DNA of 19,110 bases from a virus: UHGV virus genome UHGV-0048443; one strand, 5' to 3'. Below, piece by piece: positions 50 through 15,693 of the stretch (the first letter of the stretch is position 1; each line of letters begins with the position of its first letter). A program made the position numbers and the translations under genes. The notes under the pieces are model-generated. The model was not told where the DNA came from and did no database searches. It saw nothing but the letters and a program-made list of their open reading frames with translations.

Positions 50-859
50 TTATTCTTCTGAATTATCGATTACACTGTATTCCCCGGTTAATACAGAGGA
101 GTCTGCCGGATCGATTGTCAGTGGTTCCTTTTCATCCATTGATACTGCACGCTGGATTTCAATTGAGACAGGCAGGTATTTAAACAGGCGACGAATAGCC
201 GTTTTTTTTGCCATTTCTTCCCAGTGAGTTACCCATGGCCCGTTATTACCAGCCTTACTCTGGCTGCGCACCAGTTCAATCTGTTTGCGCGTCATAACTT
301 CAAACTGAGTCCCTCCGTCTTTCAGTCTTGCGACAGCATAGACGTGGGTCACTGGTGCATCTTCGTTTTCTCCCGGGCGGTGTATTAACTTTTCATCAAG
401 GCCAAATTCAAAACTAAACTCGTCACCTTCACGGACAACACGGGCTGACAGGCTGGCGATTTGACCAGAACGGCGAGCCAGATCAATCATGCCGCGATAA
501 CCAATGATTAGCTGAACGTTCTTTTTACCGCTCTTTTCGTTTTTATTACCAAAAGGCAGTAAATATGCGTGGCCGAGGGCGCTACCTGGCTCAAGGCCGA
601 GCTGTGAACACTGAACGATCGCACTGACAAAACTCATGGTGTCACAGTTTCCTAGCGCCGGAACCTTACGAATTTCTGTGGTGGCGATACGTATCATTCG
701 TTCAGCCGTCATATGGCGTGGGAGAGCTGCTGCCAGTTGCTCTTTCATTGATGGCTGATTAATAAAGCTGATCACGTCGTTATTTTTTACTGCTGCTGGT
801 GCACGGTTTCCCTGGGTTTTTTGCAGATCGGCTTTTGCGATAGGTGGTTGCTTAGTCAT
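50..859 (-). CDS. recT: RecT single-strand annealing recombinase (Rac prophage type)
   Basis: 269-aa product starting [14 protein letters not shown]..., recognised from memory as E. coli Rac RecT. Start chosen at the internal ATG (859) with GGAG Shine-Dalgarno 6-9 nt upstream, not the ORF-track upstream Met. Overlaps recE stop by 8 nt as in Rac. Confidence 0.9.
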
Positions 860-4369: not shown

Positions 4370-4780
4370 AATTATCTCCATTTTTACAAATGAATTTTGT
4401 CGATGCGGTGCCTGGTGCCTCCAGGTGACGTTAACCAGTTAACAATTAACGCCGGATAATCCACCCATAACACTGATGCTTTTAACTGTTCCGCGTGCGC
4501 TTAGCCGCATTCACCGCATCACAAAATTCACTTTAAAAAGGGGCGGACATCAGCCGAACTTCAAGAAAAAACTGATGCCGCCAAGACTACACACAGCAAT
4601 GTCGTTATTTACAACCGGAGGCGCACTCCCACCATTTAAATTTAACAGACAAAACCGACTCTTTATGGATATCGGAAATGCGCCTTCGTGTTGCGCCCGG
4701 TTTTATTTCACCACCTCCGGGCTTTGGTGGCCTCGGCTATACCCCTACAGCAAGAATATTGAATTAATCCAATAAATGGT

Positions 4781-4933
4781 TTAGCTGGTATTTTTGGCAA
4801 GCCAGCGACGTGCGCCAGCTTCGGTTTTAAACGATTTGCTTTTGGTATACGTCATGGCGGTGAATGTGCCGTCCTGATTGGGAAACACGGCACATACCAG
4901 AGATTCGTTGTTGCCAAGATCGATAGTATCCAT
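4781..4933 (-). CDS. Small prophage protein, YdaF/YdfA-like (DUF1391-type), 50 aa
   Basis: MDTIDLGNNESLVCAVFPNQDGTFTAMTYTKSKSFKTEAGARRW... resembles small Rac/Qin early-left proteins from memory; ATG at 4933 with GAGG SD. The ORF-track upstream extension is probably not translated. Confidence 0.55.
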   Translation of the reverse strand: MDTIDLGNNESLVCAVFPNQDGTFTAMTYTKSKSFKTEAGARRWLAKNTS

Positions 4934-5238: not shown

Positions 5239-5658
5239 TTACTCCGGTGGGGGATTATCTTTAAGCCTGCCTCTCAAATATTTTTCTACATACTCATCGA
5301 TTTCTTTTAGCCGGACTTCAAATAGCTCAATCATTCGTTGTTGTTCTGAGCCCGGTAGCTGGTTAAACAACTCAAGAAGTTTTCGTTGGGATTCATTTAA
5401 CCACAATTCAGAAGATTCCTGTTCTCCAAAGAGGAGCTCAGGAGGAGATATGCCAAGTGCCTTTCCCAATACGACAGCGTCATGCACTCCAACATTTCTG
5501 CTGCCCGCCTCATAGTTACCTATACGCGATTGCGTCCATCCGCAGATTTCAGCAAGTTTTCCTTGAGATAAACCAAGCTTCTGCCTGCGCTCTTTAAGAC
5601 GCATTGCAATTTTGTCATTGAGCCTACTAGCGGCAATTTTTTCGTTTTCTTTTTCCAT
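5239..5658 (-). CDS. racR: Prophage repressor, XRE/cI-type HTH (RacR-like), 139 aa
   Basis: HTH signature QGKLAEICGWTQSRIGNYEAG; divergent from a Cro-like gene; AAGGA SD before ATG at 5658. Assignment as racR is by synteny with Rac plus the HTH, not by exact sequence recall. Confidence 0.75.
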   Translation of the reverse strand: MEKENEKIAASRLNDKIAMRLKERRQKLGLSQGKLAEICGWTQSRIGNYEAGSRNVGVHDAVVLGKALGISPPELLFGEQESSELWLNESQRKLLELFNQLPGSEQQRMIELFEVRLKEIDEYVEKYLRGRLKDNPPPE

Positions 5659-5754: not shown

Positions 5755-5997
5755 ATGAACAAAATTTCAACATATCGAAAACAGCTTGGGCTGTCTCAAA
5801 GACAACTTGCTGTTCAGTTAGGGTGGATACAAAGCCGACTGGCAAATTACGAAGCAAATTTTCGTACCCCTGGACTAGAGGAGTGCAGAAAAATTGTTTC
5901 TACCCTTAATCGGCTTGGCGCTCATTGTGGACTTGACGATGTATTCCCCCCAGACGGTAAGCATAGCGAAAACAGCATAGGAGCGGTTGATTCATGA
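5755..5997 (+). CDS. ydaS: Cro/YdaS-like HTH regulator (80 aa)
   Basis: HTH LGLSQRQLAVQLGWIQSRLANYE; GGAGG SD before ATG; divergent from the repressor; stop overlaps the ydaT start (ATGA). Confidence 0.7.
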   Translation: MNKISTYRKQLGLSQRQLAVQLGWIQSRLANYEANFRTPGLEECRKIVSTLNRLGAHCGLDDVFPPDGKHSENSIGAVDS

Positions 5998-6416
5998 AAA
6001 TCAGGCATGAGCACATCGAATCAGTGTTGTTAGCCCTGGCAGCCGAAAAAGGGCAGGCGTGGGTCGCTAACGCAATTACTGAAGAATATCTGCGCCAGGG
6101 GGGCGGCGAATTGCCCCTTGTACCAGGCAAGGACTGGAACAATCAGCAGAATATCTATCACCGTTGGTTGAAAGGTGAAACGAAAGCGCAAAGGGAAAAA
6201 ATTCAGAAACTGATCCCTGCGGTTCTGGCAATTCTTCCGCGCGAGCTGCGTCACCGACTCTGCATCTTCGATACCCTGGAACGCCGTGCATTACTGGCGG
6301 CGCAGGAAGCGTTGAGTACGGCAATTGATGCGCATGATGATGCAGTCCAGGCCGTTTACCGGAAAGCACATTTCAGCGGTGGTGGGTCGCCCGGCGATTC
6401 TGTCGTAGTGCATTGA
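5994..6416 (+). CDS. ydaT: YdaT-like protein (140 aa)
   Basis: Product MKIRHEHIESVLLALAAEKGQAWVANAITEEYLRQGGGELPLVPGKDWNN... recognised from memory as Rac YdaT; translationally coupled to ydaS. Confidence 0.8.
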   Translation: MKIRHEHIESVLLALAAEKGQAWVANAITEEYLRQGGGELPLVPGKDWNNQQNIYHRWLKGETKAQREKIQKLIPAVLAILPRELRHRLCIFDTLERRALLAAQEALSTAIDAHDDAVQAVYRKAHFSGGGSPGDSVVVH

Positions 6417-11579: not shown

Positions 11580-11733
11580 TTTTATATTGGCGAGGTGACG
11601 AGAGTTAAGTAGAATTGCTGCGGGTGCTTGAGGCTATCTGCCTCGGGCATGAACAGCAACGGCAGATAGATAAAAGCCCCAGTTAACATTACGCGTCCTG
11701 CAAGACGCTTAACATTAATCTGAGGCCCAATCT

Positions 11734-11931
11734 ATGCTTCACAAACGTAGGTTAGCCTCTTACGAGCCGAAAGGCAAGGAGAAGCAGGCTATGAAGCAGC
11801 AAAAGGCGATGTTAATCGCCCTGATCGTCATCTGTTTAACCGTCATAGTGACGGCACTGGTAACGAGGAAAGACCTCTGCGAGGTACGAATCCGAACCGG
11901 CCAGACGGAGGTCGCTGTCTTCACAGCTTAA
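11734..11931 (+). CDS. Mok-like reading frame: in-frame N-terminal extension of hok (65 aa)
   Basis: ORF MLHKRRLASYEPKGKEKQA-MKQQK...; layout parallels chromosomal mok/hok pairs as I recall them. Confidence 0.45.
   Translation: MLHKRRLASYEPKGKEKQAMKQQKAMLIALIVICLTVIVTALVTRKDLCEVRIRTGQTEVAVFTA
11791..11931 (+). CDS. hok: Hok-family type I toxin (46 aa), HokD/RelF-like
   Basis: MKQQKAMLIALIVICLTVIVTALVTRKDLCEVRIRTGQTEVAVFTA matches HokD over its length from memory; AAGGAG SD 9 nt upstream of ATG 11791. Confidence 0.8.
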   Translation: MKQQKAMLIALIVICLTVIVTALVTRKDLCEVRIRTGQTEVAVFTA

Positions 11932-13105: not shown

Positions 13106-13395
13106 TGGTGGATTTACGTAAAGCGGCAAAAGGTCAGATGTGTACAGTCAGAATTCCTGGCTACTGCAATCACAATCCCGAAACGTCCGTGCTGGCGCAT
13201 TACAGGCTGGCGGGGACGTGTGGAACAGCGACAAAACCACACGATATGCAGGCGGCAATTGCCTGTAGCTCATGCCACGATTTAATCGACGGGCGGGTAA
13301 AAACCAGCGATTACACCAAAGAAGAATTGCGCCTGATGCATGCAGAAGGTGTTTTTCGCACACAAGAAATCTGGAGAAAGGAAGGTTATTTATGA
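13105..13395 (+). CDS. YbcO/DUF1364-like putative zinc-binding nuclease (96 aa)
   Basis: Cys/His motifs (CTVRIPGYCNHNPETSVLAHYR...CSSCHD); TAATG coupling to the upstream gene and ATGA coupling to the downstream gene. Confidence 0.7.
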   Translation: MVDLRKAAKGQMCTVRIPGYCNHNPETSVLAHYRLAGTCGTATKPHDMQAAIACSSCHDLIDGRVKTSDYTKEELRLMHAEGVFRTQEIWRKEGYL

Positions 13396-13946
13396 TTTAC
13401 CCAACAAATACAGGCAAAAGCGGGGAACACCTTCGTCTCACCACGCTGGAAAGTGTCTGGATTCAGGGAAAACTGCGCATGTGGGGGCGCTGGTCGTATA
13501 TTGGCGGCGGTAAGACGGGAAATATGTTCAACCAGTTGCTGACCTCTAAAAAGCTGACAAAAACGGCAATTAACGAGGCGCTCCGGAGGATGAAAAAAGC
13601 AGGTCTGGACAAACCTGAACTTGAGGCTTTTTTGCGGGATATGATCAACGGCAAGCAAAAAAGCTGGCTGGTGCATTGTACTGATGCAGAGGCGTTATGC
13701 ATTGATCGGGTGATTAGTGAAGTGCTGGCAGAACACCCAGGATTGATTTGTATCCTCCGGCAACGATATGAAGGGAGGGGGATGACTAAGCGAAAAATGG
13801 CTGAATTGCTGAATGGTTCACACCCTGAGTGGTGTTACGCCACGTGCCGTAATCGCATAGATGCGTGGTTGAAAATGGCAGAGTTTATGCTCTATCTGCC
13901 GATGCGTGATGCATTCTCTTCCGGGGATTCAAAAACCGTCTGTTGA
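13392..13946 (+). CDS. Late-gene antiterminator Q-like protein (184 aa)
   Basis: Start at ATG 13392 (AAGGAAGG SD), not the ORF-track upstream Met. Position directly upstream of a promoter-plus-terminator unit and the lysis genes; Cys-rich C-terminal half. Family assignment from position and motif recall. Confidence 0.6.
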   Translation: MIYPTNTGKSGEHLRLTTLESVWIQGKLRMWGRWSYIGGGKTGNMFNQLLTSKKLTKTAINEALRRMKKAGLDKPELEAFLRDMINGKQKSWLVHCTDAEALCIDRVISEVLAEHPGLICILRQRYEGRGMTKRKMAELLNGSHPEWCYATCRNRIDAWLKMAEFMLYLPMRDAFSSGDSKTVC

Positions 13947-13972
13947 CTCAATCTGTTATCCGGGGCTATATT
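13943..13972 (+). promoter_or_regulatory. Candidate late promoter (PR'-like): TTGACT - 18 bp - TATATT
   Basis: Near-consensus -35 overlapping the Q stop codon and a -10-like hexamer; lambda PR' has the same -35 hexamer and position relative to Q. Confidence 0.5.
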
Positions 13973-14035
13973 CCTCACGCGCCAGCAAAATCTGGCGTCG
14001 GGATTGGCGTCCTGGATAGAGACCGCGACAGATAC

Positions 14036-14059
14036 ACGCCGCGAGCGTGTTTTTTATTG
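14036..14059 (+). terminator. Candidate tR'-like terminator (cacgc-cgcga-gcgtg + TTTTTTATT)
   Basis: Short GC stem followed by a T-run, about 65 nt downstream of the predicted start site. Confidence 0.4.
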
Positions 14060-14216
14060 TCGTATGCGCGCGCACATCTGAATTATGGTGGGCTGTGTGG
14101 GGGCGGAGAGATCCGCGCCGGTCGGTTTCCCGGTTACGCCAACCCTGCACAGTTCACCACCAGACGATTGGCGTCGTCGGTGGTGAGTTATTAAGAAACC
14201 ACCAGAGGGCGTCATT

Positions 14217-14828
14217 ATGACAACTCAAATTTCTGTTGAAACTCTTTCCCCGATCACCCATAACCAGATTCCTGTTATTACCACCGAACTTTTAGCGCAG
14301 CTTTACGGCACTGAGCCGGTGCGTATTCGCCAGAATCATCATGAGAACAAAGTACGCTTCGTTGAAGGGAAACACTTTTTCAAAGTTGTTGGTAATGACC
14401 TTAAAGAATTGCGGGTAGCTTTAAACTACTCACAAAATTTGCGGGTTACTTTAAGTAACTCACAAAATTTGCAACCATCTTTAAGAGGGTTGCAAATTTC
14501 CCCGAAAGCCCGCTCCCTCATCCTCTGGACAGAACGCGGAGCAGCCCGTCATGCCAAAATGCTCGAAACCGATCAGGCGTGGGATGTGTTCGAAAAGCTG
14601 GAAGACTGCTATTTCAGTCAAAAGGATCCGTCAACGCCAGTTTCATGCCAGAAAAGTTACGACACGCGAGTTCTCTGTTATCAGCAAGGCGGTGTCACTG
14701 TTTCCACAATTCAGTTGCGGGATGATGATATTGTTATTTCCCTTGAGTCATGGCTGGAACTGGCGAGAGCCAATGGTTGGTTTGTTGTTCGCAGAGATAA
14801 ACTGGTGGAAAGGCTGATGCAGCTTTAA
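14217..14828 (+). CDS. ORF6N/KilA-N-type domain protein (antirepressor-like), 203 aa
   Basis: N-terminal pattern IPVITTELLAQLYGTEPVRIRQNHHENKVRFVEGKHFFKV and later ARHAKMLETDQAWDVFEKLED are typical of ORF6N-domain proteins; GAGGG SD before ATG. Confidence 0.75.
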   Translation: MTTQISVETLSPITHNQIPVITTELLAQLYGTEPVRIRQNHHENKVRFVEGKHFFKVVGNDLKELRVALNYSQNLRVTLSNSQNLQPSLRGLQISPKARSLILWTERGAARHAKMLETDQAWDVFEKLEDCYFSQKDPSTPVSCQKSYDTRVLCYQQGGVTVSTIQLRDDDIVISLESWLELARANGWFVVRRDKLVERLMQL

Positions 14829-14923
14829 AAAAGTTCTTGCAATTTTAGCCATAAACTGCTTCAATTCCGGTACGCTTCGCAAAGCTGTATCGCGAGGCGA
14901 ACCAAGCGCATGAACTTTACCAG

Positions 14924-14952
14924 AACCCGCCATTGAGCGGGTTTTGTTGTTT
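14924..14952 (+). terminator. Rho-independent terminator (aacccgc-cattga-gcgggtt + TTTTGTTGTTT)
   Basis: About 100 nt after the ORF6N gene stop. Confidence 0.55.
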
Positions 14953-15176
14953 CTGACGGATAGAAAAAATGAAATAGCTAAATAAAAAGAATGCATTGGA
15001 TGCCATATATTGGCAACGTGACGACAGCGTTAATCTGGTCGGGCTCCCATGGCGACGTAGTGAGGGAGAGGAAGCGTAAAGCATCACTGAGTTACGGTTG
15101 GCACCCGGTTTAACGCGTAAGTAGCCTGATAAAGAGATAGTGCACCGCGGCACTAACAGCGGCAACGATTAACTGA

Positions 15177-15201
15177 CCTCGGCATTTGCCGGGGTTTTTT
15201 T
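15177..15201 (+). terminator. Rho-independent terminator (cctcggc-attt-gccgggg + TTTTTTT)
   Basis: 7-bp stem (one G-U pair), 4-nt loop, seven T; about 100 nt upstream of the holin start. Confidence 0.6.
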
Positions 15202-15325
15202 ATTTAAGGCCGCAGACAGGCCCATTTAGTGCAACGCCTTTCCCCGTTTCCGCTCCTGGAATATTCGGGGATTTTTTATTCCCTCAATTTGCACCCGCGA
15301 TATGTGCGAGGTGAGAGATGATGAA

Positions 15326-15693
15326 ATGCCTCATAACCCAAATACCTGGCCGGACTGGCTGGAGTTGTTTCAGAGCTGGTGGCGTGGAGACACTCCGCTG
15401 GGCGCAGTGATTATGTCGATCGTTATGGCTGGTTTGCGCATCGCCTATTTTGGCGGTGGTGGGGGCTGGAAACGAAAAACGCTTGAGATTCTGCTTTGTG
15501 GTGCTCTGACGCTGACCTTTGCATCCGCGCTTGAGTATGTCGGATGGCCTAAATCACTTTCTGNNNNNNNNNNNNNNNNNNNNNNNNNNTTTCTGTTGCC
15601 ATTGGTGGTGGGGTGGGGCTGATTGGTGTTGATGCTATTCGTGGTGCGGCAATGAGGGTCATCGGTAACAAGTTCGGTGCCCATAAGGAGTAA
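15326..15693 (+). CDS. Class I holin, lambda S-like (interrupted by N-run 15564-15589)
   Basis: LRIAYFGGGGGWKRKTLEILLCGAL parallels lambda S [22 protein letters not shown]; C-terminal part after the gap (SVAIGGGVGLIGVDAIRGAAMRVIGNKFGAHKE) parallels the lambda S C-terminus. In-frame alternative start at 15302. Directly upstream of the endolysin. Confidence 0.6.
15564..15589. other. Assembly gap (26 N) inside the holin gene, flanked by duplicated tttctg
   Basis: N-run. Merging the flanking 6-bp repeat restores a continuous in-frame holin. Confidence 0.8.

Follow-up and report, generated by a model that had tools for sequence, protein, structure and literature searches.

The c4 antisense RNA of the immI region of phages P1 and P7, the subject of work by Citron and Schuster in 1990, reportedly controls icd-ant through sites designated a1 b1, a' b' and a2 b2. 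The C4 RNA of P1 is excised from its precursor by RNase P. The corresponding Rfam families are C4 (RF01695) and c4-a1b1 (RF03163) (see also Weinberg et al., 2010; PMC2864571).

A further system of this kind is the isrK-orf45-anrP-isrJ locus of the Salmonella prophage Gifsy-1 (Hershko-Shalev et al., 2016; PMC4825925). Its promoter, PisrK, was active experimentally, with 280 Miller units compared with 3 when it was deleted, and transcription partially reads through past IsrK. The short IsrK RNA supplied in trans activates antirepressor translation 140-fold, and a processed form of STnc1160, the equivalent of C4, has been reported (PMC4825925). The same study called IsrK a structural homologue of P4 SeqA (PMC4825925).

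The window examined here is a 19,110-nucleotide stretch of the virus genome UHGV-0048443, and all features described below lie on its + strand. An initial annotation had interpreted positions 13943-14059 as a candidate late promoter of a Q-type antiterminator followed by a short terminated leader, in the manner of lambda PR'. Judged from its sequence, this promoter and short terminated RNA are an IsrK small-RNA gene, a known element, at the head of a portable antirepressor cassette that is controlled by antisense RNA. The observation of a promoter with a terminated leader is right, but the late-promoter reading of 13943-13972 is wrong. By homology, the locus corresponds in E. coli to isrK-orf45-anrP of Salmonella Gifsy-1, and it also resembles the immI module of phages P1 and P7. 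As a whole, it is considered quite probable that a portable antirepressor-control cassette, headed by this promoter and its first transcript, was inserted between Q and the late promoter that belongs to Q.

The promoter and small-RNA gene at the Q stop codon

The gene at 13392-13946 encodes a Q-like antiterminator of 184 aa from the DUF1133 family (Pfam DUF1133, 356 bits). The protein also matches Phage_antitermQ (27 bits) and PHROG 753, 'anti-termination protein Q-like', and is weakly similar to the Q protein of phage 21 (PDB 6P18, E=5e-4). A sigma-70 promoter of the PisrK type occupies 13943-13972 as originally described, with TTGACT (13943-13948) as -35, an 18-nt spacer and TATATT (13967-13972) as -10. 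It overlaps the end of the Q-like ORF, whose stop codon TGA (13944-13946) is contained within TTGACT. The GC hairpin and T-run reported after the promoter were also found, as a 6-bp G+C-rich hairpin (14034-14050) followed by TTTTTT (14051-14056).

Taken by itself, the hexamer match does not exceed chance expectation: a promoter scan found 12 promoter-like sites in the window and 23.2 +/- 4.8 in shuffled sequences. The promoter at 13943-13972 stands above chance because of its conservation and homology. TTGAC(T/G)-18-TATATT lies at a constant distance upstream of 76 of the 79 C4 copies, which were found independently of the promoter sequence, and the sequences further upstream represent at least four settings unrelated to one another. 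Control of the cassette by LexA was rejected, as no LexA-box-like site was seen near 13900-14000.

The -10 hexamer ends 6 nt before position 13979, the first base of an IsrK-type small RNA of 77 nt (13979-14055) with two hairpins at its 5' end, then a linker, then the intrinsic terminator formed by the hairpin and U-run mentioned above. Rfam isrK (RF01394) matches 13979-14055 over model positions 1-77 of 77 with 75.5 bits (gathering score 50), and c4-a1b1 (RF03163) matches 13966-14018 with 50.5 bits (gathering score 46.7). Together with the C4 match downstream, these matches lie above gathering score in the correct order and spacing, and the trio is also present in relatives; the covariance-model E-values for the cassette RNAs range from 1e-10 to 1e-15. 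As expected of an IsrK family member, the RNA has its own predicted sigma-70 promoter and Rho-independent terminator, which would yield a product of about 77 nt. Within it lie site b1 (UUGGCGU, 14004-14010) and site a1 (GAGACCG, 14019-14025). Its folding z-score of -0.7 is uninformative. The proposal of a short terminated RNA with read-through as the regulated step is retained, but not its identity as a 6S-like leader, in view of the isrK/c4-a1b1/C4 module recognised by Rfam. Two ORFs (13943-14194 and 14047-14220) were rejected as genes, since each overlaps the RNAs and neither has a conserved frame; a Pfam search with ORF 13943-14194 gave no match.

The C4 antisense RNA, its predicted targets and the antirepressor cassette

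A C4-type antisense RNA, the equivalent of STnc1160, is located at 14081-14164 and consists of a closing stem and two hairpins (Rfam C4, 66.7 bits compared with a gathering score of 45). The stem terminates in ...CACCACCA, which is P1-like. Site a' (CGGUUUC, 14123-14129) is in a loop, and site b' (ACGCCAA, 14136-14142) is single-stranded. The C4 target at the antirepressor ribosome-binding site (14168-14209) contains site b2 (UUGGCGU, 14168-14174) in the loop of a hairpin at 14155-14185, and site a2 (GAAACC, 14195-14200) beside the Shine-Dalgarno sequence AGAGGG (14204-14209). Inside the UUGGCGU/ACGCCAA duplex, pairs 14006-14140 and 14009-14137 are equal to Gifsy-1 pairs G28-C162 and G31-C159, which were tested by compensatory mutation (PMC4825925).

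Covariation of these sites was studied in 23 leader variants. Pairing of b1 with b' and of b' with b2 is 100% in each case (163 cells), whereas slid controls were only 13-46% paired. Four of the eight b-site pairs change on both sides, in 34 cells, and these changes include a compensated 1-nt insertion at all three sites. The complementarity of a' to a1 and a2 is 6-7 nt in cognate sets versus 2.5-3.3 nt in non-cognate sets (6.8 nt versus 3.3 nt for a':a2). There are 13 distinct a'/b' combinations, with at least seven a-types and six b-types, and in every variant that was checked visually a2 lies at the Shine-Dalgarno sequence. This three-way covariation of the IsrK, C4 and ribosome-binding-site sites indicates that IsrK mimics the C4 target. 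Whole-sequence RNAduplex predictions for IsrK, C4 and the downstream region forced long-range pairings and were set aside in favour of the site-level analysis.

The antirepressor gene (14217-14828) encodes a protein of 203 aa with an ORF6N domain (Pfam ORF6N, 68.8 bits; PHROG 2379 'anti-repressor', 313 bits), and the 5' two-thirds of the gene share 97% identity with VT2-Sakai ant. A short ORF of 33 codons inside C4 (14085-14186) is the positional counterpart of Gifsy-1 orf45. The AUG of transcript position 107 is kept at 14085, and the frame and length of the ORF differ among variants. Its stop codon (14184-14186) lies 30 nt before the ant start codon without overlap, and thus translational coupling may work differently in the window or not at all. 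The prophage repressor (138 aa) has a helix-turn-helix domain only, and the lack of a self-cleavage domain makes the cassette a good candidate for the induction switch.

The cassette occurs in a range of genomic surroundings. Window positions 13956-14617 are 98-99% identical to VT2-Sakai, and in Stx phages the promoter and leader (99% identical) come after a nin60-like gene and 2.5 kb before an unrelated Q. In Gifsy-1 the cassette comes after a lambda-type Q (PF06323), and in locus L011 of S. enterica strain s1, which was considered as Gifsy-1 but is not the Gifsy-1 of SL1344, it adjoins a divergent parDE-like pair without an adjacent Q. Across these relatives, the promoter and leader are seen to move with the antirepressor gene and not with Q. 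Gifsy-1-type loci were recovered with the published IsrJ probe sequence, which gave 76 exact matches; the 26 of these with an isrK promoter motif at most 1.3 kb upstream were used, and the rest are probable chance 16-mer matches. Of 5,426 complete E. coli genomes, 2,110 contain parts of the query and 44 match at least 80% of it; among prophages of E. coli, Shigella and Salmonella, a large group has this cassette headed by the promoter and short terminated RNA directly after Q. In one RefSeq genome checked, the three cassette RNAs are unannotated, and the VT2-Sakai annotation has a 'hypothetical protein' laid over C4.

The probable late promoter, the proposed mechanism and its alternatives

The true Q-dependent late promoter is most likely to be found 0.9 kb downstream of the isrK promoter, beyond the antirepressor gene. 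The probable PR' of the DUF1133-type Q (14837-14876) has TTGCAA (14837-14842) as -35, a 17-nt spacer that ends in TGc (an extended -10) and TTCAAT (14860-14865) as -10, and 5 nt later comes the -10-like TACGCT (14871-14876), presumed to be the sigma-dependent pause element and transcription start region. This geometry equals that of lambda PR', TTGACT-17-TAAATT-6-AACGAT. The proposed -10 is non-consensus, with T instead of A at position 2, and a generic promoter scan did not report 14837-14876. Two other -10 assignments for this block were discarded: TAAACT at 14852 would leave a spacer of only 9 nt, and TACGCT has no -35 at a fitting spacing.

In cassette-free relatives with a DUF1133-type Q, the Q stop codon is embedded in TTGNNN-17-TTSAAT-5-TAnGCT and a terminator follows, whereas all the cassette-bearing relatives examined have the PR' block after ant. 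The pattern TTGNNN-N17-TNNNN[TG]-N5-TANNNT gave 28 matches in 254 kb of Q loci, all of them Q-linked, and zero background matches. At all 28 loci, the block is offset by -26 to +3 from the Q stop if there is no insertion, or else lies directly after the inserted cassette, and a terminator is found within about 50-90 nt after the Q-linked block. In the window the PR' block falls at 14837-14952, after ant, and the 'second terminator' of the initial annotation is therefore likely to be tR'. This probable tR' (14921-14952), conserved with the PR' block in relatives, would end a 6S-like leader of about 74-80 nt that starts near 14872. The PR'/tR' layout is not supported at 13943-14059, where it had been placed, but is present at 14837-14952.

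Both terminators reported before the holin gene are present, with a T-rich tail after 14921-14946 and a run of seven T after 15175-15196. The spacer that precedes the holin gene, non-coding and conserved, contains the third intrinsic terminator of the region (15175-15203). This spacer is 92% identical in Citrobacter murliniae, right after the tR' of that prophage, and the folding z-score of spacer 14990-15203 (-0.9) is uninformative. The holin gene (15302-15622; Pfam Phage_holin_3_1), which contains an N run at 15565-15590, is the first lysis gene. The lysis genes are located behind further terminators and plausibly require Q, in line with the earlier suggestion of antitermination. Rfam isrJ had no match in window positions 13800-15400 (E up to 1), and thus the RNA after ant is a counterpart of IsrJ by position only and not by sequence; likewise, isrJ had no match in Salmonella locus L011 (E up to 10). 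ARAGORN found no tRNA genes downstream of Q, where Stx phages carry them.

The proposed mechanism begins at the sigma-70 promoter TTGACT-18-TATATT, from which transcription would start at about G13979, a step strongly supported by homology. By homology, most transcripts would end at the hairpin and U-run (14034-14056) to give the 77-nt IsrK-type RNA, and a fraction would continue into the C4-type RNA and the antirepressor gene. Sites a' (hairpin loop) and b' (single strand) of C4 are predicted to pair with a2 and b2, which lie beside and immediately upstream of the ant Shine-Dalgarno sequence, leaving the antirepressor untranslated. The b1 and a1 sites of IsrK, being copies of the target sites, would compete for a' and b', and an excess of the short RNA would allow antirepressor translation. 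The antirepressor would then inactivate the 138-aa prophage repressor, and early transcription would thereafter reach Q. Q is expected to act at 14837-14876 and not at 13943-13972, and polymerase from 14837-14876 would enter the lysis genes after passing tR' and the terminator at 15175-15201. Where transcription starts in this prophage, how efficiently it terminates and how C4 is processed are all inferred by homology, and the steps from pairing to lysis are drawn from the three-way covariation together with the precedents of P1/P7 immI and Gifsy-1.

It is very improbable that 13943-13972 is instead PR' with a qut site, with the 77-nt RNA as its 6S-like leader and Q-modified polymerase passing all three terminators into the lysis genes. 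The promoter does sit right at the Q stop and a short terminated RNA is presumably made, and a late promoter overlaps the Q stop in cassette-free members of the DUF1133-type Q family. Furthermore, read-through of the Gifsy-1 IsrK terminator rises about 8-fold once the AntQ-inducing cascade is on, and AntQ interferes with termination broadly (PMC4825925). However, the nearly identical promoter and leader of Stx phages have no Q before them and an unrelated Q, and a different Q family precedes them in Gifsy-1. Visual inspection of the first 25 bases of the transcript (13979-14003) showed no -10-like pause element (TAnnnT or AAnnnT), and the spacer of this promoter has nothing in common with the one conserved in the Q-linked block. 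The family-conserved block of promoter, pause element and terminator is a separate one at 14837-14952, and in Gifsy-1 the PisrK read-through mRNA, of about 910 nt, stops at the IsrJ terminator, short of the lysis genes (PMC4825925). These observations speak against the claim of a Q-dependent PR'/qut at 13943-13972. That the hexamers and hairpin are a chance resemblance and not functional signals would fit the promoter scan (12 matches, 23 expected) and the folding z-score, but the covariance-model E-values, the conservation in 76 of 79 copies, the covariation and the Gifsy-1 experiments (PMC4825925) effectively refute this idea, which has negligible probability.

Two further alternatives accept the cassette and differ in how it works. 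Under the mechanism published for Gifsy-1, taken literally, C4 would not repress ant in trans at its ribosome-binding site but would form one side of a pairing in cis. In that model, the inactive fold of the read-through mRNA has the middle part of IsrK paired with the 3' half of C4/orf45. Short IsrK supplied in trans breaks up this pairing, which makes the ribosome-binding site of the small internal ORF accessible, and translation of this ORF is coupled to that of the antirepressor (PMC4825925). Genetic, structural and toeprint-type data support it in Gifsy-1, where cis mutations in b1 raised basal translation, which a simple model of C4 as repressor and IsrK as decoy does not explain. Extra STnc1160 made IsrK toxicity stronger and not weaker, again at odds with a simple decoy, and the authors explained activation by alternative cis structures and translational coupling from orf45 (PMC4825925). 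In the window, the retained AUG at 14085 agrees with this mechanism, and the b1:b' covariation fits it equally. However, the small ORF stops 30 nt upstream of the ant AUG and varies in frame and length among variants, and the mechanism gives no reason for b':b2 and a':a2 to covary at the ant Shine-Dalgarno sequence, as the P1-type model predicts exactly. It is judged somewhat unlikely for this locus. Control as in P4, whereby the C4-like RNA would act mainly on transcription (termination or polarity) via flanking sites and IsrK would antagonise it, is decidedly improbable. The Gifsy-1 authors, who pointed out that IsrK and P4 SeqA are structurally alike, mentioned this possibility, and trans IsrK lifts the level of the long transcript about 8-fold, but this is far below the 140-fold effect on translation, and their co-expression test gave the termination model no support (PMC4825925). 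The position of a2 at the Shine-Dalgarno sequence in the inspected variants also points to control of ribosome access.

Wider meaning and comparison with described systems

For annotation, the locus illustrates that a promoter and short terminated RNA right after Q are not automatically PR'. The comparative data provide natural compensatory variants for probing the interplay of IsrK, C4 and the ribosome-binding site, and they locate a candidate late promoter for the uncharacterised DUF1133 Q family. IsrK-type RNAs may be released mimics of the C4 target, and the independently assorting a and b sites may form a combinatorial code for cross-talk among the cassettes of co-resident lambdoid prophages. 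A joint reading, which is held tentatively and falls a little short of an even chance, combines IsrK decoys, the a/b specificity code, a cassette between Q and the late promoter in two unrelated Q families, IsrJ as a 6S-like leader and a DUF1133 late promoter within Q. If this is true, the 'island' small RNAs of Gifsy-1 become mundane, with IsrK as a C4 decoy and IsrJ as the PR' leader of a lambda-type Q, and the DUF1133 proteins would be a Q family whose late promoter is contained in the final codons of Q.

As in the PR'-qut-6S RNA-tR' region of lambda, the Q gene of the window is directly followed by a constitutive promoter for a short terminated RNA, and terminators precede the lysis genes. 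However, the likeness in geometry (-35, 17 nt, -10, 5-6 nt, -10-like element, terminator) belongs to the block at 14837-14952, whereas 13943-14059 is without a -10-like pause element, is not Q-linked in relatives and lies 0.9 kb upstream of the lambda-like block. The Q protein of the window, from DUF1133, has only weak similarity to Q21 and none to lambda Q. The CI RNA of P4, with seqA, seqB and seqC, is similarly a processed antisense RNA located in a leader between complementary sites. It causes premature transcription termination of replication genes, whereas in the window the downstream target is at a ribosome-binding site and the regulated gene encodes an antirepressor.

Gifsy-1 isrK-orf45-anrP-isrJ shares with the window a Q gene, a promoter at the Q stop, a terminated 77-nt IsrK and a C4-like RNA (STnc1160), followed in the same order by an ORF6N-type antirepressor, a second short terminated RNA and a holin gene (Hershko-Shalev et al., 2016; PMC4825925). 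The transcript numbering and the b-site sequence (UUGGCGU / ACGCCAA) are also the same. The two loci differ in the upstream Q family (DUF1133 in the window, lambda-type PF06323 in Gifsy-1) and in the a-site, which is GAGACCG/CGGUUUC in the window and UCACCG/CGGUGA in SL1344, as read from its primer sequences. The small ORF of the window is clear of the ant start, which orf45 of Gifsy-1 overlaps, and the antirepressors share only 48% identity. The RNA after the antirepressor gene differs in sequence from that of Gifsy-1, without an Rfam isrJ match.

Like the window, the P1/P7 immI module is served by a single constitutive promoter, and its transcript carries copies of the target upstream of an embedded antisense RNA as well as further copies downstream, at the ribosome-binding site that serves the antirepressor operon. 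In both, two short sites set specificity and differ between heteroimmune relatives, and the C4 stem has a CCA-like 3' end. As in immI, a1b1 precedes C4 in the window, both above gathering score, and a' and b' are complementary to second sites at the ribosome-binding site. An icd-like ORF coupled to ant1/ant2 was not found in the window, where the next gene is the ORF6N antirepressor with its own Shine-Dalgarno sequence; the window thus works like immI without being the P1 operon. This ORF6N protein is not Ant1/2 of P1, and the host element is a lambdoid prophage, whereas that of P1/P7 is a plasmid prophage. Unlike P1/P7, the window has an intrinsic terminator between a1/b1 and C4, and its upstream target copies would therefore be released as a separate small RNA.

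A terminated leader at the Q stop codon

The promoter-like sequence TTGACT-18-TATATT (-35 at 13943-13948, -10 at 13967-13972) is exactly as the initial annotation described it, with the TGA of the -35 hexamer forming the stop codon of a 184-aa open reading frame (13392-13946). This frame encodes a Q-type antiterminator (Pfam DUF1133, 356 bits; PHROG 753, 'anti-termination protein Q-like'); it also matches Phage_antitermQ and resembles the Q of phage 21, both weakly. The G+C-rich hairpin after the promoter (6 bp, 14034-14050, six T directly following) is likewise present, as are two more terminators (about 14921-14952 and 15175-15201) ahead of the holin gene. A promoter scan returned 12 promoter-like sites in the window vs 23 expected in shuffles; the hexamer match alone is thus not above chance, and evidence of function must be sought elsewhere.

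Scanning the window against Rfam gave three matches exceeding the gathering score, in the order c4-a1b1 (13966-14018, 50.5 bits), isrK (13979-14055, 75.5 bits, full length) and C4 antisense RNA (14081-14164, 66.7 bits). The antirepressor gene ant follows (14217-14828; ORF6N domain; PHROG 2379 'anti-repressor'). This arrangement after Q is the same as that published for the Salmonella prophage Gifsy-1, where the order is antQ - isrK - orf45 (STnc1160) - anrP - isrJ - lysis genes (PMC4825925). In Gifsy-1, transcription needs the isrK promoter (280 vs 3 Miller units), the IsrK terminator stops most transcripts, the read-through fraction yields an mRNA of ~910 nt, and antirepressor translation rises 140-fold when short IsrK is provided in trans (PMC4825925). 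Furthermore, the pairs G28-C162 and G31-C159 were verified by compensatory mutation (PMC4825925). Numbered from G13979, they correspond to window pairs 14006-14140 and 14009-14137, both inside the duplex UUGGCGU (14004-14010) / ACGCCAA (14136-14142), which makes the window element an IsrK homologue at the level of individual positions. Judged by this comparison of sequences, the promoter and short terminated transcript at 13943-14059 are real.

IsrK and C4 are overlapped by two open reading frames, 13943-14194 (83 aa) and 14047-14220 (57 aa), but it is very improbable that either is a gene. The 57-aa frame is the counterpart of 'orf34, hypothetical protein' in the VT2-Sakai record, and comparable short CDSs are annotated across the RNAs in the pPE4 record. 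Within the ORF6N part of ant, 14409-14485 contains a 30-nt tandem repeat of ~2-3 copies, each with a palindromic core around CTTTAA and coding for LRVALNYSQN-like decapeptides. Repeat copy number is apparently the cause of the differing antirepressor lengths in relatives (185, 193 or 203 aa), and weak sub-threshold Rfam matches on the minus strand at the repeats probably reflect repeat hairpins.

A probable late promoter of the DUF1133 Q family

The initial annotation had read 13943-14059 as a lambda-like PR'/qut/tR' region. Tests for two defining features of such a region, a pause element resembling a -10 and a link to Q that persists among relatives, found neither, which leaves the assignment unsupported. 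When read by eye, the first 25 transcribed bases after 13979 contained no -10-like pause element. To locate the Q-linked promoter, 27 genomic loci and several phage records encoding relatives of the window's Q were aligned at the Q stop codon, which in cassette-free relatives sits inside a conserved block of its own. The 192-aa versions of Q carry TTGCAA (codons Leu-Gln), 17 nt, TTGAAT (with the TGA stop), 5 nt and TAGGCT, so that the -35 and spacer lie within the final Q codons and the -10 includes the stop codon. The 180-aa versions carry cTTGAtt (with the stop), 17 nt, TTCAAT, 5 nt and TACGCT. In most, TGn stands right before the -10 hexamer (extended -10), and an intrinsic terminator follows 50-90 nt further on. 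The pattern TTGNNN-N17-TNNNN[TG]-N5-TANNNT has 28 matches on the gene strand of 254 kb of Q loci, all at the Q-linked position. Relative to the Q stop, the offset of the block is -26 to +3 with nothing inserted, +835 to +891 with the antirepressor cassette in between, and +580 in locus L019. Q proteins of cassette-bearing loci differ from other relatives only in their last 5-12 residues, which is consistent with insertion immediately ahead of the old -35.

In lambda, the -10-like AACGAT causes a sigma-dependent pause where Q loads. The window block, conserved in the family, has a geometry equal to that of lambda PR' (TTGACT-17-TAAATT-6-AACGAT, read from NC_001416), comprising the -35 TTGCAA (14837-14842), the extended -10 TGc-TTCAAT (14857-14865; 17 nt separate the two hexamers) and, 5 nt after TTCAAT, the -10-like TACGCT (14871-14876). 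It is 97% identical to the sequence directly after Q in phage vB_EcoS-673R7 and is followed by a terminator, the candidate tR' (14921-14952). An RNA running from A14872 to the U-run is predicted to measure 74 nt and to contain a 5' hairpin and the terminator. The block at 14837-14952 is probably the real PR'/tR' of the DUF1133 Q family, and what the initial annotation listed as a second terminator (14924-14952) is probably the tR' of this promoter (14837-14876). Its idea that the lysis genes stand behind terminators for Q to overcome is reasonable.

Between tR' and the holin gene lie 340 nt (14961-15301) with no plus-strand ORF of at least 50 aa, no tRNA, no Rfam match, a folding z-score of -0.9 and no gene annotated in the record of E. 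coli P4, which is 99.9% identical. This stretch has a strong terminator at 15175-15201, then a second T-run hairpin (15254-15276) at its end, and is 92% identical to sequence directly after tR' in a Citrobacter murliniae prophage (L025 4670-4902). The holin gene as listed (15302-15622) contains 26 N at 15565-15590, a masked stretch or assembly gap, and is therefore not fully readable.

A similar geometry occurs in Gifsy-1, where the IsrJ promoter TTGCAA-17-TATATT-6-AAATCT matches that of lambda PR' and 10 of 17 spacer bases are identical to lambda by our count. In Gifsy-1-type loci (L114 at about 659-776, minus strand, and 25 others among L114-L189), IsrJ starts about 7 nt past TTGCAA-17-TATATT, which itself comes immediately behind the anrP stop codon; the RNA runs to a terminator close before the holin gene. 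AntQ, encoded upstream, is a member of the lambda-Q family (PF06323). IsrJ may simply be a 6S-like PR' leader; it was published as a small RNA related to virulence.

Portability of the antirepressor cassette

Many Stx phages contain a segment with 98-99% identity to window 13956-14617. In VT2-Sakai this segment comes after a nin60-like gene, and an unrelated Q with its tRNA/stx region lies 2.5 kb downstream. There, TTGAC is retained at the same place, although the DNA preceding the -35 bears no relation to that of the window. Of 80 viral contigs collected via the antirepressor protein, some 60 are arranged Q(DUF1133) - leader - ant, and 14, all Stx-type, have leader - ant without a DUF1133-type Q. 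The Q ahead of the cassette in Gifsy-1-type contigs is lambda-type (Pfam PF06323), with no similarity found to the window's Q, and in the Salmonella locus L011 a second copy adjoins a divergent parDE-like pair. When C4 copies were found by their own sequence and the promoter was then sought upstream, TTGAC(T/G)-18-TATATT preceded 76 of 79, the other three being rearranged. On these arrangements, the promoter at 13943-13972 belongs to the cassette rather than to Q.

The two L011 cassettes (1251-1540 and 4549-4815), of which one lies in the nin region and the other follows Q, differ in a and b specificity (UUUGCAC/CGGUGA and UUGGUCU/CCUUUUUC). Loci L084-L086, L093, L094, L098 and L099 have 0.5-1.3 kb of additional DNA between the C4 leader and ant. 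Matches to the window's prophage region at 87-95% identity occur in L002 (PP818812.1, 'Actinobacillus phage vB_Apl-pPE4'), whose host label looks doubtful, and in L013 (JARKOR010000130.1), a 5-kb 'Candidatus Nanosynbacter' MAG contig whose binning looks doubtful. The window itself is an E. coli Rac-like prophage (99.9% identity to strain P4); 80% or more of the segment is present in 44 complete genomes, and the one genome checked has no RNA annotation at the cassette. The nin region also contains a hok/sok type I toxin-antitoxin module (11622-11796; Rfam sok, 107.6 bits), found too in related prophages L002, L004, L007 and L011.

Covarying sites and proposed control of the antirepressor

An alignment of 23 distinct leaders revealed three-way covariation of sites b1 (loop of the second IsrK hairpin), b' (single strand in C4) and b2 (loop of a hairpin that precedes the ant ribosome-binding site). 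Site b has six variants, such as UUGGCGU/ACGCCAA/UUGGCGU and UUAGCAC/GUGCUAA/UUAGCAC; in UUAGGAAC/GUUCCUAA/UUAGGAAC a 1-nt insertion is compensated at all three sites. Pairing of b1:b' and b':b2 each holds in 100% of 163 cells with zero broken, vs 13-46% paired in slid controls, and 4 of 8 pairs (34 cells) changed on both sides. Site a lies in the IsrK linker (a1; window GAGACCG, 14019-14025), the C4 hairpin loop (a'; CGGUUUC, 14123-14129) and beside or overlapping the ant Shine-Dalgarno (a2; GAAACC, 14195-14200, four bases ahead of AGAGGG at 14204-14209). Its seven loop types show complementarity of 6-7 nt when cognate vs 2.5-3.3 nt when non-cognate, and the two sites assort independently (13 combinations).

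In the immI operon of P1/P7, c4 RNA blocks the ribosome-binding site via a2/b2. Given the a/b covariation and this logic, with upstream copies released as a separate RNA, IsrK would imitate the C4 target, compete for a'/b' and, in excess, permit antirepressor translation. A serious rival for the activation step, for which alone it is retained here, is the model of the Gifsy-1 authors, in which alternative cis structures and translational coupling from a small ORF inside C4 activate the antirepressor. A simple repressor-and-decoy scheme does not account for two Gifsy-1 results: basal expression was higher with cis b1 mutations, and extra STnc1160 gave stronger toxicity (PMC4825925). The small ORF in the window (14085-14186) stops 30 nt before the ant AUG rather than overlapping that codon, so coupling may be weaker here, and the coupling model leaves the b2/a2 covariation unexplained.

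The putative prophage repressor (5239-5658, minus strand, 138 aa), which adjoins divergent cro-like (5755-5997) and cII-like (5994-6416) genes, has a helix-turn-helix only (HTH_3), with no S24 peptidase (self-cleavage) domain found, and no LexA box was found near the cassette. Prophage induction dependent on the antirepressor is therefore plausible.

The element is closely homologous to a locus studied by experiment and to curated Rfam families, so the finding is already known. Three readings of the comparative sequences may be new: an explicit late-promoter block for the DUF1133 Q family, a cassette position between Q and PR' that recurs in two Q families unrelated to each other, and the identity of Gifsy-1 IsrJ with a 6S-like PR' leader. 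The window cassette follows the logic of the P1/P7 immI operon, as the Rfam family names reflect (Weinberg et al., 2010), but differs in that an intrinsic terminator frees the upstream target copies as a separate RNA.
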